Below are positions 33,476-39,150 of a DNA stretch of 39,150 bases, piece by piece. Position 1 is the first letter of the stretch; each line of letters starts with the position of its first letter. The translations under genes were made by a program, and so were the position numbers. Below the pieces are notes generated by a model, which saw only the letters and a list, made by a program, of their open reading frames with translations, searched no databases and was not told the origin of the DNA. This DNA comes from Candidatus Thorarchaeota archaeon (GTDB lineage Archaea; Asgardarchaeota; Thorarchaeia; Thorarchaeales; Thorarchaeaceae): positions 1-39,150 of the forward strand of contig JBHLRQ010000021.1 in NCBI GenBank assembly GCA_048882385.1, given 5' to 3'.

Positions 33476-34984
33476 ATGACCGATGATCTTGATGTCGAAA
33501 CTGTCAGGATAATTCGTCTTACTGGACTCAGAGAAGCTGAAATCACTTCCGCCAGAAAAGAACAAAACACAACGTGGACGAAAATCCAGAATACGATTGA
33601 AAATCATAATCGATTCATCAAAATGGGTGAAAGGCATACTCGGCAAAAAGCTGTCCAAGACCCTGTTCACGGAGCGATTCTTCTCGAGCCATGGGAACTC
33701 GACATCATATCAACATGGGAAATGCTTCGACTTCGATATGTCCGACAACTTGGTCCTGCACATCTAGTCTATCCTGGAGCAACACATACAAGGTTTGAAC
33801 ACTGTATCGGAACCAACTTTCTTGCTCAGAAATCAATCCGAGTAGTGAACTACTGTGAAGACCTCGATAAAGCTTGTTTTGTGCCTTTTTCAGGACTGAT
33901 TGATGATTATCATCAGAAGATATTCAGAGCTGGGGCACTGCTTCATGATGTTGGACATCCTCCTACTTCTCACACAATTGAATATGCTCTACATTCTTGG
34001 GTTGGTCTTGACCACTTAGATTTGGGTACGTTCCTAATTCTGAATAGCAGTCTGAATGATACCTTGAAAGAAAATGATATTGATCCAAAGGATGTAGTCA
34101 ATATTCTTCGGAGGAAGACGAATGAACCAATCAAAGAGCTGCTTTCTGAATTTCTTGATCATCCATTGGATATTGATAAAACAGACTACCTGATTAGAGA
34201 CGCACACTTCAGCGGGGTTCAGTTAGGCATTTTCCCTGCCGAGAGAGTCCTGCTTACAAATCGAGTTGTAAGAAACAAGAAAGGCAATTACATCCGAGCT
34301 TTTATGCTAAAAGCAATTCATTCTTTGGAAGCATTGATTCTCAGTAGAAACTGGATGTTTAGTGATCTCTACTTACACCATGCTGTCAAGCTGGCTGAAG
34401 CATTGATCTCAAAGGCGACTTATTTCAGAATGAAAGAAGAGGATTTGTCAAAGAATGAGTGCGTAGGCTTCTTTACCCGCATGACAGATGGAGACCTTTT
34501 CAGATGGCTTGAGAATTCAGATATCGATTTCGTAAGAGAATATGCTTCCAGGATTCGTTATCGCAAACTGTTCAAAGTCGTGTTATCGAGACCACTTACC
34601 TCGTTTGAGAGAGATACCGAAAAGCGCTTTCGAGAGATGATTCAGAACATTCCTCTATTGATCGAAGCCGAGAACGAGCTCGCTGATGTGGAGGGAAGTG
34701 TTGTCATTGATGTCGTCGATCCACCTCTAGGAGAAAAAACCCTTGGGAAGATACCTCTTCTTGTAGGTGGAGAAACAGGCTTTGATATTGTGAGTCTTGA
34801 TGAAACTAATGAAGGTCGTCCATTGATGCATATTCTTGAACAGCAATCACGAACAATCCCCTCAGTGAGGGTTTATGCCGATGCAAGTATCACAGACAAG
34901 ATACGGAAGCGATTCGACAAGTTATTCCCTATTGCTGATAGTCCTACATACCGAGAAGATGAGTATGACCTTACTGAATACTAA
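33476..34984 (+). CDS. HD-domain phosphohydrolase, SAMHD1/dNTP triphosphohydrolase-like
   Basis: DPVHG, RLRYVRQLG, VYPGATHTRFEH, LLHDVGH..SH, DIDKTDYLIRD, LYLHH. TATA-like TTAAATA at 33434-33440. Confidence 0.9.
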   Translation: MTDDLDVETVRIIRLTGLREAEITSARKEQNTTWTKIQNTIENHNRFIKMGERHTRQKAVQDPVHGAILLEPWELDIISTWEMLRLRYVRQLGPAHLVYPGATHTRFEHCIGTNFLAQKSIRVVNYCEDLDKACFVPFSGLIDDYHQKIFRAGALLHDVGHPPTSHTIEYALHSWVGLDHLDLGTFLILNSSLNDTLKENDIDPKDVVNILRRKTNEPIKELLSEFLDHPLDIDKTDYLIRDAHFSGVQLGIFPAERVLLTNRVVRNKKGNYIRAFMLKAIHSLEALILSRNWMFSDLYLHHAVKLAEALISKATYFRMKEEDLSKNECVGFFTRMTDGDLFRWLENSDIDFVREYASRIRYRKLFKVVLSRPLTSFERDTEKRFREMIQNIPLLIEAENELADVEGSVVIDVVDPPLGEKTLGKIPLLVGGETGFDIVSLDETNEGRPLMHILEQQSRTIPSVRVYADASITDKIRKRFDKLFPIADSPTYREDEYDLTEY

Positions 34985-35666
34985 TCAGATGTTTTACTAA
35001 ATCCACTACTCGTTTGTACTCATGCTCAATATAGATGATGCCATATATTGCTTCTATGAGTGTCCCCTTGTCATGGTTGATTTCTGACTTGCTTGGCGTG
35101 TCAGGATCGAAATGAATGCGATAGTTATACAGATCCCATTTATCACACAGCTTTGCCATGTTCTCATTGCTCACAATTTCTGCCTTCCTTAAGGTAATCT
35201 TTCCCGCATCCCCCAAGTGCGGTTTCCATAGATGCTTAAGAACTGCTGATGATATAACCGCATCACCAACAAGTGCTAGTACTTTCGCCATCTCGCTTAG
35301 ATTGATCATTTGGGCAAATTCGTCTTGTCCTAAAAGATCCTCATTACTATTACGATAATGGGTATCTATCTCCAAGAAAATATTCTTGGTACTAGGCTGA
35401 AACATAGCAACAAGGAAAAGCTCATGGTTCTGAAATCTCACATTCAAGACATCTTGTAAGAATGGAATGAGATTCTCTTCTATGCGTTGAAAGGAGTTTT
35501 GAATATACCTGATATCCTCGAGCCACTTTTCGAGTTTGCCCAGAAGTCGAGTGTTATTCATTGGTGTACTAGCAAAGGTCGATTGAACTGCTTCAACAAG
35601 TGCATTCATGCGACGTTTTAGCTGTATTGGATTCCAAGAAAGTGCCAAGTGTGAATTATCAGTCAA
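34971..35666 (-). CDS. Ribonuclease III-domain protein without dsRBD
   Basis: LNVRFQNHELF..AM..PS, LALVGDAVI, GKITLRKAEIVSNENMA, GTLIEAIYGIIY follow the RNase III domain pattern. Probable start TTG 35666, just after the upstream stop. Confidence 0.75.
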   Translation of the reverse strand: MTDNSHLALSWNPIQLKRRMNALVEAVQSTFASTPMNNTRLLGKLEKWLEDIRYIQNSFQRIEENLIPFLQDVLNVRFQNHELFLVAMFQPSTKNIFLEIDTHYRNSNEDLLGQDEFAQMINLSEMAKVLALVGDAVISSAVLKHLWKPHLGDAGKITLRKAEIVSNENMAKLCDKWDLYNYRIHFDPDTPSKSEINHDKGTLIEAIYGIIYIEHEYKRVVDLVKHLISIQ

Positions 35667-35679
35667 TATGTCACGTCCT

Positions 35680-36462
35680 TCAGTAATAGCTAACCTCCGC
35701 ATTATTTGCGTCGTAGCTTGTGACATGAAAAGCAGTAATTGAGTATTCGGCTGCCAATTTAGCCATTGCAAGTGCCACAAGTGGAGGTCCCAATGTCAAA
35801 TCAATGACAATATCATGGTCGTTAATGTGCTTCAAGATAGTATCCTCCAGGAAATCGCAGGTCCCTTGAAGATTGCCATACTCGTGTGTTTCTCGAGTTC
35901 CCGTGACATTGTCAGGAACCTCATTCCATTCTGTAGTCCATACTCGAAAAGCATCATCAGGAATGAACCGATCTAAAATCCTTGACACACCTCTTGTCCA
36001 ATGTATGGCTTCAACGAAAACCAATAGTTGTTTTGGATTGAAGTGAGGATTATTGGCTAGCCACTGCACAAATGGTCGCTGCTCTTCAGGATTGCTCAGC
36101 GAAGTAACATACATTAGCGGTTTTGTGATTCCTAGAGCTCGACGCACCGGGATTATAGCCCGAGGGTCTAGTTCGAAAAGGCGGTACTGTGATTGTTTCC
36201 AACTGACAATAATTCCAAGTTCTTCAAGACGACCTGTGTTGTGGTAGAGTTTGGGACTGGTCACTTCAATCGTTTCAGCCTCCTTCTTGGTAAGAGCACG
36301 TCCTTTCCTCTTGACCTCTTGAGCCTGCATATCCCTTCGAATAGCTTCCCGCAGTTCAGTTCCTGTCTTCAGTCCCCCCTCAAGGTGATCAAGGATAATC
36401 CTTCTAGCCCTGACAGTTTCAATTTCTTCTCTTATGATGTCTTCAACAGACTTTCTGAGCAT
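35680..36462 (-). CDS. Winged-HTH protein with C-terminal CARF-like Rossmann domain
   Basis: N-terminal RRIILDHL..T.TEL..KLYHN..RLEELGII wHTH; C-terminal IVIDLTLGPP..LAM..AAEY.I..FHV resembles CARF motif II. Confidence 0.6.
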   Translation of the reverse strand: MLRKSVEDIIREEIETVRARRIILDHLEGGLKTGTELREAIRRDMQAQEVKRKGRALTKKEAETIEVTSPKLYHNTGRLEELGIIVSWKQSQYRLFELDPRAIIPVRRALGITKPLMYVTSLSNPEEQRPFVQWLANNPHFNPKQLLVFVEAIHWTRGVSRILDRFIPDDAFRVWTTEWNEVPDNVTGTRETHEYGNLQGTCDFLEDTILKHINDHDIVIDLTLGPPLVALAMAKLAAEYSITAFHVTSYDANNAEVSYY

Positions 36463-36708: not shown

Positions 36709-37848
36709 ATGGCTGAAGACGAGTTTCTTGGCGCGAAGCCCATTGTCATTGACAATGGTACTGGTTTGAGCAAGAACGGTTACGCCGGCGAAGATCAGCC
36801 ACGCAGCGTTTGGCCCACACTAATTGGTTATCCACGTTATGAATCAATCATGACTGACGTGGACCACTATACACGTGACTACTACATTGGTGAAGAGGCT
36901 ATCAACCTCCGTGGTGTACTCCGCTTGGTATACCCGATCTCTCATGGAATCGTAGAAGACTGGGATGCGATTGAAAAGATTTGGAGCTACACCTTTTACA
37001 ATGATCTTAAGGTAGATCCTAGTGAGAATCCAGTGCTTCTTACTGAAGCACCATTCAACCCCAGAGAAAACAGAGAGCGCATGGCATCTGTCATGTTTGA
37101 TAACTTTGGTGTACCTGCTGTGTACGTTGCTACACAGGCTGTACTCTCATTGTACGCATCCGGAAGGACCACAGGTCTGGTCATTGACTCCGGTGACGGT
37201 GTTACCCACATAGTACCAATCTATGAGGGCTTTTCAATCAACCACGCAATCAAGCGAATTGACTTGGCTGGTAGAGACATCACTGAGTATTTGCGCAGAC
37301 TCCTCAGACAGAGGGGCTACTCATTCGTGAGTGGTGCAGAGAAAGAGATTGTCAGAGATATCAAAGAGAAGCTATGCTACGTAGCTCTAGATCCCGAAAG
37401 GGAAAGGACTGTCGCTGACAAAGCTGGTGTTGACAAACCCTACATGCTACCTGACGGTGAGGTAATCACCATTGGTGCAGAGAGATTCCAGGGACCCGAG
37501 TTGTTCTTCAATCCTAGTGCCATTGGTCTAGATACCATTCCACTTGATGACCACATTGTCGAGTCAATCAAAGCCTGTGACGTCGACTTGAGGCGTGACC
37601 TATACGCTAACATAGTTCTATCAGGTGGTTCAACCATGTTCCCAGGACTCAAGGAGAGACTCCACAAGGAGATCACCGAGCTAGTCCCAGAGAACATTGA
37701 GGTCCGAATCATTGCTCCTCCCGAGAGACAGTACTCTGTCTGGATTGGTGGAAGCATTCTTGGCTCACTCAAGACATTCCAGAAGATGTGGGTGTCGAAG
37801 AAAGAGTTCGAAGAAGTCGGACCCGAAGTGATACACCGCTGTATCTAG
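36709..37848 (+). CDS. Asgard actin (eukaryote-like actin)
   Basis: [93 protein letters not shown]; 379 aa. Confidence 0.97.
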
Positions 37849-37887
37849 TATACACAGTTTAACGAAGGTGGGCTTCGGCCCCCTTCG
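37798..37887 (+). repeat. Direct repeat copy 1: actin 3' end plus hairpin (att-like left junction)
   Basis: 37798-37848 matches 38975-39025 at 48 of 51 nt; the downstream hairpin is also shared. Confidence 0.9.
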
Positions 37888-37900
37888 CTCTCTTGTTTTT
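37863..37900 (+). terminator. Actin terminator hairpin with cUUCGg tetraloop and pyrimidine/T tract
   Basis: CGAAGG(T)GGGC-TTCG-GCCC-CCTTCG followed by ctctcttgttttt. Confidence 0.8.
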
Positions 37901-37941
37901 AAAATAATATCCAAAACTGGAATACAGAATCTCCTAATATT

Positions 37942-38880
37942 TTACTTATTTTGGTTTCCAAACCTACGTTTTGCAAAATAAATTCCGCCAGTGATTACTC
38001 CAATTGGGACTATGATTAGCGCATAATATTCAATATGATATGCCATAGGGTCCCAACTTACAGTGTATATTCCATAACATCCTACATGAGTAATTTCGAA
38101 ATTATCACCTGATAATGTAAGATCCCATACAGCCTTTGCCCAGGTCTGATTCCATGATTCAGAAAGTCCCGTTTCTGGGGTAAATCCGTTAAATACCCAC
38201 TCATGGACATCATCTCCAAAACGTTCTGTTTTATTTTCAATTCCTTTTACTTCCATCGTAATAATCTCATGAGTCATACCTTCCCAGCTATATGCAGACC
38301 CAACACAATATGAAAAGCCGCAATAGGTCATATAACCTGAGGCACCTTCAAAATCGACGGAAGAAACTACAGACACCTCTAAGAGTTTCGGTGTATTCTC
38401 TATGAATGTTAGATTAAATGTTGCGAAATTATGGTCTTTAATCCACCCCCAATCTGTAATATCCGTGGAATTTACATCACCCGATGTATCATTATACATC
38501 GCAATAACTTGGTCAAAGGATAATTTCACAAAGTGAATCTCTTCTTGCTGACATATAATCTCAAACTCACAACTAGGATTCTTTGTACTCTCTAAATCCC
38601 ATTCTTGTGGATAGGCAAAAGCTGTGAGTGAAGTTTGATTTGTTTCACTGATAAAATTGAAAGTGCTCGTTAATTCGAAAGTTTTCGTACCAAATGGGTC
38701 CAATACAATGTGTACCTCAGCTTCTGGCATATATACACGATCTCCCATAAACAGACCGCCCGACTCAAAAGCACTACTTGTAATTGTGATTGGATTAGAA
38801 CTGACTTCTACCGGAAGAAACATGATTGTAAAACAAGCAAGTACTGAAAGAAGTACAACTGGTGCTAAGGAACACCTCAT
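37942..38880 (-). CDS. Secreted, C-terminally anchored surface protein (DUF4424-like), cargo between the actin repeats
   Basis: Signal peptide, beta-rich body (GGL..MPEAEVHI..F.F..AFAYP..Y..SA.SW.G), several NxS/T sequons, C-terminal TM helix plus basic tail; visibly more AT-rich than actin. Confidence 0.7.
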   Translation of the reverse strand: MRCSLAPVVLLSVLACFTIMFLPVEVSSNPITITSSAFESGGLFMGDRVYMPEAEVHIVLDPFGTKTFELTSTFNFISETNQTSLTAFAYPQEWDLESTKNPSCEFEIICQQEEIHFVKLSFDQVIAMYNDTSGDVNSTDITDWGWIKDHNFATFNLTFIENTPKLLEVSVVSSVDFEGASGYMTYCGFSYCVGSAYSWEGMTHEIITMEVKGIENKTERFGDDVHEWVFNGFTPETGLSESWNQTWAKAVWDLTLSGDNFEITHVGCYGIYTVSWDPMAYHIEYYALIIVPIGVITGGIYFAKRRFGNQNK

Positions 38881-38974
38881 TACGCATATCGCCTACAAAT
38901 ATAATAACAACAGATTTTCGTATTAATATTCTCACTTAAGCATGTTTTGACACCATGGCAGTATCTAGATACTC

Positions 38975-39025
38975 AAGAAGGATTTCGAAGAAGTCGGACC
39001 CTAAGTGATACACCGCTGTATCTAG
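38975..39025 (+). pseudogene. Decayed copy of the last 17 actin codons (direct repeat copy 2; att-like right junction)
   Basis: Reads KKDFEEVGP*VIHRCI* versus [16 protein letters not shown] in actin; offset 1177 bp. Confidence 0.88.
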
Positions 39026-39039
39026 ATTGCGCTAGTTTC

Positions 39040-39078
39040 CGAAGGCGGGCTGCAAGGCCCCCTTCGATTCTCTTTTTC
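39040..39078 (+). terminator. Second copy of the actin terminator hairpin, with GCAA (GNRA) loop
   Basis: CGAAGG(C)GGGCT-GCAA-GGCCC-CCTTCG followed by attctctttttc. Confidence 0.75.
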
Positions 39079-39150
39079 TGGAAATTTATGAACCCAGTAT
39101 ATTCTATTGGATTTCGAGAAAATCACTATTTCGACTCATCGTAGATCTTC

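Follow-up and report, generated by a model that had tools for sequence, protein, structure and literature searches.

We found that the 3' end of the actin gene in a Candidatus Thorarchaeota genome anchors an array of gene cassettes, which are separated by directly repeated copies of the actin tail and of the hairpin that follows it. The stretch of DNA analysed here (the window; 39,150 nt) is a whole contig (JBHLRQ010000021.1 of assembly GCA_048882385.1, C21 of genome G000 in our numbering), and the second copy of the repeat ends 65 nt before the contig end. Recombination at the repeated unit is shown by the head-to-tail form of the array, together with an anchor gene that is restored, former 3' ends that are displaced, cargo that is modular, and breakpoints that fall at units. 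An initial annotation, made from the sequence of the window, had proposed the conserved actin tail as a recombination anchor in this lineage. Relatives bear this out, with variable cargo bounded by tail repeats next to a restored actin gene.

The gene is the sole actin match in the G000 genome, and the protein is 97–99% identical across the genus. Its last 51 nt (37798–37848) recur at 38975–39025 with 48/51 identical positions (blastn search of the whole 3.7 Mb genome, E 2e-15). In the reading frame of actin, the second copy has three substitutions, AAA>AAG, GAG>GAT, and GAA>TAA, the last creating a stop codon, just as had been described initially. A longer gapped match (37798–37905 vs. 38975–39085; 82% over 112 columns, E 1e-21) extends the homology beyond the actin tail into a spacer, a G+C-rich hairpin, and a T-run (~108 nt in all). 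The features of the locus are as follows.

36709–37848, plus strand: actin gene, the anchor of the array (379 aa; Pfam Actin, E 2.6e-132)
37798–37905, plus strand: unit 1, the primary (gene-proximal) unit, with the last 17 actin codons, spacer, hairpin, and T-run
Parts of unit 1: actin tail, 37798–37848; palindrome GATACA/TGTATC, 37830–37845; hairpin, 37863–37887; T-rich run, 37888–37900
37942–38880, minus strand: cargo of cassette 1, a 312-aa open reading frame (ORF) and the sole ORF between unit 1 and unit 2
38881–38974, minus strand: upstream region of the cassette 1 cargo, AT-rich with a TATA-like stretch (from sequence only)
38975–39085, plus strand: unit 2, a displaced copy, with an actin-tail remnant (38975–39025) and TAA at 39002–39004
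Parts of unit 2: hairpin, 39040–39066; T-rich run, 39067–39079
39126–39150, minus strand: 3' end of the DUF3303 gene (95 aa) that forms the cargo of cassette 2 and continues on contig C202 (L001:3275–3562)
L001:3152–3056 (contig C202): unit 3, decayed (nhmmer, E 3.4e-17), ~450 nt past unit 2 and beyond the DUF3303 gene

The array continues past the window, as the 77-nt overlaps of contig ends give the order C21, C202 (reversed), and C4 (reversed); the assembly-graph node that closes the window begins at 39074. The cassette 2 cargo matches DUF3303 in Pfam (E 3e-10), and the gene after unit 3 encodes a DUF998 membrane protein (Pfam, E 7e-16). Unit 3 itself has a perfectly paired hairpin of another sequence type. 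A profile built from the three copies matched only the actin locus in G000, with its three copies (next match E 0.87), which rules out a dispersed repeat of the miniature inverted-repeat transposable element or repetitive extragenic palindromic kind.

With regard to the cassette 1 cargo, the single AT-rich gene that had been placed on the opposite strand between the two copies is indeed there. Its G+C content is 0.36–0.40 (actin, 0.46–0.49; genome, 0.427), and its product has a signal-peptide-like N-terminus and a hydrophobic C-terminal anchor. Judging from these sequence features, the product is predicted to be a secreted or membrane-anchored protein, with its family unassigned. No Pfam or PADLOC family matched it, and it is grouped by the Atlas with uncharacterised archaeal clusters. 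The AT-rich, TATA-like stretch upstream suggests that cassette 1 probably has its own promoter. A homologue (57% identical) lies in the same place in G020, between two units beside actin, and a more distant one (41% identical) forms the second cassette of metagenome contig L160.

The unit is ~105 nt long and consists, in this order, of the actin tail (~51 nt), a palindrome, the stop codon, a variable spacer, the hairpin, and a pyrimidine/T-rich run. The 6-bp palindrome (GATACA/TGTATC) spans the last codons and overlaps the stop codon. Folding gave two separate short hairpins, with unit ends that read AAGAARGAG... and ...CTCTTGTTTTT; an attC-like long-range pairing of these ends was considered and was not predicted by the folds. 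The hairpin occurs in several sequence types in which pairing is kept (one pair is G-C in 20 and A-U in 10 units of a 30-unit alignment). It is retained, with at least 7 pairs, in 91/93 units classed as non-primary, whose mean folding energy is −14.2 kcal/mol vs. −7.5 for shuffles. The initial annotation had placed a homologous terminator hairpin after both copies of the tail. Hairpin and T-run are present in both, whereas a simple terminator scan called neither window hairpin because the T-run begins more than 2 nt past the stem, and the hairpin is therefore best described as a putative terminator.

To map where homology to actin begins, we used 86 displaced units, as 7 of the 93 were found to be primaries and were dropped. 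The starts fall between −5 and +4 in 35 units, between +5 and +20 in 23, between −22 and −6 in 13, at −41 and −65 in 2, and beyond +20 in 13. The modal start is actin codon 363/364, and the right end of the unit is always the end of the T-run. The variable positions of displaced tails are the wobble positions of functional actin codons, which marks these tails as fairly young copies of genuine actin tails rather than relics long in decay. No Rfam family matched on the arrays (one chance-level match, E 0.36), and the spacer variant TAGATTG had 0 matches in the metagenome scan. Purine-arm hairpins, considered as a possible general terminator of the genome, gave 32 strict matches on 11 contigs (both strands, overlapping registers counted), in a test that was too strict to be decisive.

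Using the unit profile, we searched the region downstream of actin, over as much as 18 kb, in the 28 genus genomes. Two to six units were present in 19 genomes, which speaks against the one-off local duplication named as the alternative in the initial annotation. One unit was found in seven genomes, two of which break at or just after it, and none in two genomes, in which the actin region is unassembled. Where relatives have unit copies on other contigs, these in every case extend the same array and lead on to the same downstream genes. At least two units within 6 kb were also found in 30/63 Thorarchaeota loci (actin 89–99% identical, other genera included, overlapping with the genus set) and in 18/34 metagenome contigs from the Joint Genome Institute (JGI), with a maximum of 7 units in 10 kb (L153). 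All units (238/238) run in the direction of actin, with no inverted copy among them. Every primary copy ends an intact actin gene, and displaced copies do not code for protein. An empty site is seen in G008 and G019, which have actin, one unit, and DUF998 where G000 has two cassettes and two extra units. The examination of relatives downstream of actin thus gave the variable cargo and the empty sites that had been sought there, while no tyrosine or serine integrase was found in the cargo tested. These counts need to be interpreted considering that genus genomes, GTDB loci, and JGI contigs overlap, that units and intervals were de-replicated by exact sequence only, that related genomes are not independent, and that the data are mostly contigs and incomplete metagenome-assembled genomes (MAGs).

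The cargo is modular. We obtained 78 distinct intervals between adjacent units, which measure 219–4483 nt (median 861) and include nine "empty" cassettes (219–400 nt). In 41 cassettes the largest ORF is encoded on the minus strand and in 31 on the plus strand, while six cassettes have none; these ORFs fall into 48 families. Cassettes that recur do so with the same junctions and in one fixed orientation relative to the units; an 893-nt nitroreductase cassette occupies position 1 in G006 and position 2 in G022, and the F23 cassette (610–635 nt) occupies position 1 or 2 in six genomes. Even the DUF998, GNAT, phosphotransferase-like, F5, and F10 genes, seemingly a conserved backbone, are each flanked by units in some contigs. 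Predicted functions include deaminase-TPR, HD-B12-radical SAM, peptidases, an ABC transporter, nitroreductase, DinB, and helix-turn-helix (HTH) regulators, next to many unknowns. A defence island was also considered; PADLOC gave weak or partial matches in 3/10 proteins, and we make no claim in this respect.

By their sequences, downstream units look like displaced former actin 3' ends. The post-stop part of unit 2 in the window agrees at 43/53 positions with the primary units of G020 and G002 vs. 32/53 with the primary unit of G000 itself, and that of u1 in G022 agrees at 51/53 with the G000 primary unit vs. 33/53 with its own. The same pattern of a match to a foreign primary was found for u1 of G000, G014, G024, and G016 and for u1 and u2 of G006. 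Displaced tails, for their part, are often identical to the resident tail (G024, 50/50; G006 and G020, 49/50). Foreign hairpin types downstream are expected if incoming DNA brings a new 3' end and hairpin and displaces the former one. A comparison of G010 with G004 shows this directly, as the second unit of G010 is the counterpart of the G004 primary unit, and ahead of it G010 has an insertion of two genes, for an HTH protein and an S15 peptidase, along with a new hairpin type.

Breakpoints between related sequences fall at or in the unit. Over 5189 nt, contigs L153 and L178 share 99.7% identity; they then part within the hairpin of unit 4, past which only an 85%-identical DUF998 region is common to both. 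In G015 and L163, actin differs at 5/595 nt upstream of position −5; dense divergence starts 5 nt before the unit, and the cargo is unrelated. At unit 2 of the window, Logan contigs leave at 39075 (run X9) and enter at 39009 (run X5). Blocks of identity between first and second units also vary by genome (positions 1–57 in G024, 15–76 in G010, and 28–103 in G005). A correlation of actin and unit divergence was tried for locating crossovers, and it was too noisy over 50-nt segments and was left unused.

A chimeric join at a repeat could in principle mimic such an array, and we consider an assembly artefact of this kind to be exceedingly improbable. It would fit the observations that the window contig stops 65 nt past unit 2 at a 77-mer graph node and that several MAGs break within the actin tail. 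However, an independent 4164-nt Logan contig (runs X1 and X2) bridges 37819–39150, spans cassette 1 and unit 2, and extends 2833 nt further. X1 and X2 match in contig size and in depth, and the two may be a single data set. The architecture moreover recurs in dozens of MAGs from different assemblers, in JGI contigs, and in a single complete chromosome (L094), though there the second unit is weak. In X2, depth is ~250 over the 3' part of actin vs. 14 over the cargo, and many relatives in the sample therefore share actin but not its downstream sequence. A single X2 contig that joins 37901 to 39120, with 24 nt on its shorter side, is too weak as evidence to be counted. All four runs consist of contigs and not reads, and uncovered parts carry no meaning. 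Contigs end inside or just after the actin tail in G001, G006, G009, G019, and G021; that Thorarchaeota MAGs often break at the actin 3' end is what would be expected if the repeated unit fragments assemblies.

The architecture is not confined to actin and was also found on the tail of an acyl-CoA dehydrogenase gene and on tRNA-Tyr. Comparison of the G000 genome with itself gave a second repeat family, with 16 copies on C121 (L187), C146 (L188), C173, and C189, which occurs in 25/28 genus genomes with up to 19 matches per genome. Its unit consists of the last ~66 nt of a coding tail, a stop codon, a spacer, a GAGAGAG/CTCTCTC hairpin, and a T-run, and is alike in architecture but unrelated in sequence to the actin unit. 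The anchor of this array was seen on C113 of G004, where a 414-aa acyl-CoA dehydrogenase gene (L193:2787–4031) has its 3' end within the first unit. The left boundary is sharp next to unrelated cargo, which includes NosD/beta-helix proteins and glutamine synthetase; only distant beta-helix paralogues are common to the cargo of the two arrays. In addition, the 3' 44 nt of tRNA-Tyr, from the anticodon loop, are repeated 1.9 kb downstream on C1 of G000 (L189:1949–2025 and L189:3910–3953), and the interval holds a single 613-aa NosD/beta-helix gene and no integrase. Other direct repeats of 50–140 nt, spaced 0.6–4 kb, were noticed on C154 (3 copies), C174, C175, C176, C12 (46213/48058), and C28 (251/910), and may be further arrays on other anchors.

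A dedicated enzyme was not detected. Neither a tyrosine nor a serine recombinase nor Cas1 was found in G000 (95.3% complete; no match to PF00589, PF00239, PF16795, or PF01867), and Pfam searches with cargo proteins from ~100 array loci (those of the genus, 63 of Thorarchaeota, and 34 on metagenome contigs) gave no recombinase. PF00589 is present in 8/28 genus genomes and never on a unit-bearing contig; G004 and G013 are without it, yet have 19 and 11 units of the second array. We also compared 26 ORFs from 16 tyrosine-recombinase loci of the genus with 2649 ORFs (1.5 Mb of array loci) using phmmer, which gave three marginal matches, none of them a recombinase; the sensitivity of this search is confined to relatives of the genus's own recombinases. 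Two of these matches are a shared zinc ribbon (including L157:4388–5623), and the third comes from a neighbouring ORF without a Pfam family. A search of virus and plasmid contigs for an actin-tail attP had been proposed initially, and IMG/VR contigs had no exact match to the conserved cores of either unit family (exact IUPAC patterns only). As a separate observation, PF00589 was undetected in 20/28 genus genomes, which hence lack a XerA-like match, while C116 of G020 has three tandem PF00589 ORFs.

We tentatively favour, at a confidence just short of even, the reading that the actin 3' end bears a gene-cassette array in which circular cassettes are integrated and excised through the unit by homology-dependent single crossovers, carried out by host functions. 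According to this model, a unit with its cargo would insert at the actin tail in a way that leaves actin with a complete 3' end and hairpin and shifts the previous unit downstream as a non-coding copy. Repeated insertions would build the head-to-tail array, and recombination between units would delete, shuffle, and exchange cassettes among strains and species. Insertion would be a Campbell-type single crossover of circular cassette DNA through the unit, by host recombination rather than a dedicated integrase; that the intermediates are circular, which enzyme acts, and that the hairpin works as a terminator are all inferred. Homology dependence is favoured because no integrase was found, because two unrelated units behave alike, and because the exchange points vary in the unit. 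The acyl-CoA dehydrogenase array with its unrelated unit fits a homology-driven process better than one sequence-specific enzyme, and the identity-block mosaics that vary by genome are as homologous exchange would give.

Nonetheless, several points weigh against plain homologous recombination. The start of homology is peaked (35/86 displaced units within −5..+4) and is sharper still in the second array despite unrelated cargo; homologous recombination leaves it unexplained that cargo is flanked at the same nucleotide, which a site-specific enzyme or a single founder would explain. At ~105 nt, the homology tract is short. Neither a circular form nor an excision junction was seen, a result that is limited by the use of contigs only. 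The tRNA-Tyr duplication starts in the anticodon loop, and such a start is a classical signature of tyrosine integrases. Our searches for recombinases covered known families in MAGs that are incomplete. The first acquisition of flanking units by a new gene is explained by no model that we considered.

Many of these points would be accounted for by a recombinase that acts in trans, from a virus, a plasmid, or an unrecognised host gene, in which case the units would be att sites and the cassettes integrase-less elements, mobilisable in cis or in trans, that accrete in tandem in the manner of cis-mobilizable elements (CIMEs) or integron cassettes. We give this explanation a substantial but clearly minority share of the probability. 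It would suit the left boundary that is peaked in both array families, the compact and often single-gene cassettes, the hairpin that is kept in 91/93 non-primary units with compensatory changes, the 6-bp palindrome overlapping the stop codon, the tRNA-Tyr repeat from the anticodon loop, and the G015/L163 divergence that starts 5 nt before the unit. The "empty" cassettes (9/78; 219–400 nt) also resemble micro-cis-mobilizable elements (microCIMEs) of 130–220 bp, as far as these are described in the accessible text of PMC7563491. Against it, no integrase was found in ~100 array loci, none of the four families matched in G000, PF00589 is present in 8/28 genomes only, and no unit was found on IMG/VR contigs (exact patterns) or on the integrase contigs of the genus. 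Two unrelated units would further need two specificities or recognition of structure, the boundaries spread from −65 to beyond +35, and identity blocks and breakpoints lie at differing places within the unit.

De novo local duplication of the resident tail appears improbable to us; it could arise, for instance, when template switching or break-induced replication at the hairpin captures foreign DNA, or from cuts staggered by ~105 nt as in CRISPR repeat duplication. Varying left ends together with a right end that is always at the T-run end, and displaced tails identical or nearly so to the resident one (G024, G006, and G020), are what it would lead one to expect. However, the displaced post-stop parts mostly differ from the resident primary and match primaries of other species, which a fresh local copy would not do, and the same cassette is found with the same junctions at other positions and in other species. 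We regard as very unlikely that G000 alone carries a single decayed island of an integrase-bearing element, or a one-off duplication. The window by itself, with two copies and one cargo gene, could be read in this manner, and the initial annotation had indeed described a reduced island; what it holds is one cassette of a multi-cassette array (3 units in G000 and up to 7 elsewhere) in which no integrase was found. Arrays with different cargo in most relatives and a second array family in the same genome likewise oppose such an origin.

Among known systems, the closest parallels differ in important respects from the Thorarchaeota arrays. In Streptococcus, CIMEs and microCIMEs accrete in tandem with integrative and conjugative elements (ICEs) as well as integrative and mobilizable ones (IMEs) at the 3' ends of fda, rpsI, and rpmG; these CIMEs are without integrase, have cargo of 1.2–13 kb or no gene, and vary by strain in order and content (PMC7563491, accessible text). 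On that description, both systems use the 3' end of a conserved protein gene as target, with direct repeats flanking integrase-less elements that are arranged in tandem and have variable content. They differ in that integrase-bearing ICEs and IMEs occupy the Streptococcus sites in many strains, with CIMEs seen as decay products according to the same text, whereas none was found in ~100 Thorarchaeota loci. The Thorarchaeota repeat is also ~105 nt long and includes the hairpin and T-run of the gene, numbers reach 7 units on actin and 19 matches per genome on acyl-CoA dehydrogenase, and the host is an Asgard archaeon.

The attC site of integrons is a single imperfect inverted repeat (R''-L''...L'-R') with conserved RYYYAAC and GTTRRRY ends. 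The actin unit is instead a coding tail with two small hairpins, not one long imperfect palindrome with RYYYAAC/GTTRRRY ends. Unlike in integrons, whose cassette ORFs are for the most part promoterless and oriented with the array, cargo ORFs lie on either strand (41 minus, 31 plus), neither intI nor attI was found, and the array starts inside a housekeeping gene. Integrons and clusters of attC sites lacking integrase (CALINs) have been reported in Archaea and are enriched in Asgardarchaeota, according to the accessible text of PMC9668308. As described there, they resemble our arrays in their compact, mostly single-gene cassettes, a repeated hairpin-bearing site in one orientation, diverse and often unknown cargo, and mostly no adjacent integrase. 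This comparison was made by description, and those Asgard CALINs may overlap with the actin arrays.

Islands and proviruses in the 3' half of tRNA genes carry a copy of the target 3' end, by which the gene stays intact and the displaced fragment marks the far junction. Successive insertions of such elements, which carry their own integrase, push older repeats outward. The arrays are alike in their restored target gene and displaced 3' fragment, and G000 has such a duplication at tRNA-Tyr, but the actin-array cargo is 0.2–4.5 kb and no integrase was found. Asgard elements at tRNA sites have been described (PMC8813620, accessible text). With regard to integrative elements of gene 3' ends in general, the repeats are copies of the target 3' end and the gene is restored, while an integrase-bearing member was not found at the site. 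Casposons encode a Cas1 casposase, are bounded by terminal inverted repeats, and duplicate a short stretch of their target site. They were ruled out here, considering that G000 has no PF01867 and that the repeats are direct and ~105 nt long, with no inverted terminal repeats seen. A literature search found nothing on actin-tail or gene-tail cassette arrays in Thorarchaeota or other Asgard archaea (most subscription journals and supplements were outside its scope).

We also made some observations on actin genes and their surroundings. Upstream of actin and divergent from it (34971–36462, minus strand), the window encodes a 260-aa protein without a Pfam family and a 269-aa RNase III-domain protein; metagenome contigs have ORFs of 261–262 aa in the same place, a resemblance of size and position only. 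In G028, from another Asgard family, an actin-family paralogue (L069:191–1396) ends ...HWITKK*, which is the left-boundary position of the Thorarchaeota unit. A fragment encoding an actin C-terminal tail lies 6.3 kb downstream (L069:7692–7784), with beta-helix, PadR, and unknown genes between. The actin gene of L163 has an insert of ~31 nt (L163:8140–8175) with an in-frame TAG after ...WSYT, which splits the ORF and may be a small intron. Judged by gene length, the insert is also present in L157, L166, and L185, and L112, L114, L117, and L124 have an additional 30 nt. In the closed 1.4 Mb genome of G026 (L068, ~1264–1377), tblastn puts actin residues 342–379 in a second frame overlapping the end of the main match, and a frameshift or a short duplication may be present there, at the 3' end of actin.

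A broader proposal, which we advance with reserve and think rather more apt to fail than to hold, is that Thorarchaeota have a general gene-capture system, independent of integrases or with an unrecognised recombinase, in which the last 50–66 nt of a conserved gene (actin or an acyl-CoA dehydrogenase) and the hairpin form the repeated recombination site of an integron-like array of mobile single-gene cassettes. If true, such a system would be an archaeal counterpart of integrons and would explain part of the flux of accessory genes in Asgard archaea. If a recombinase is responsible, it is an unrecognised enzyme for which the arrays provide the substrate. Should the process be homology-driven, a strongly conserved gene end would be a landing pad shared across species, and this would suggest a natural docking site for Asgard genetic tools. 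The accessory gene pools of Asgard archaea are large and the mechanisms that move their genes are poorly known, and the actin-tail array offers a defined, recurrent, and recognisable platform of gene gain, loss, and exchange. This platform sits on the tail of actin, an emblematic eukaryote-like gene, and on that of a metabolic gene, in genomes in which no known integrase was found.

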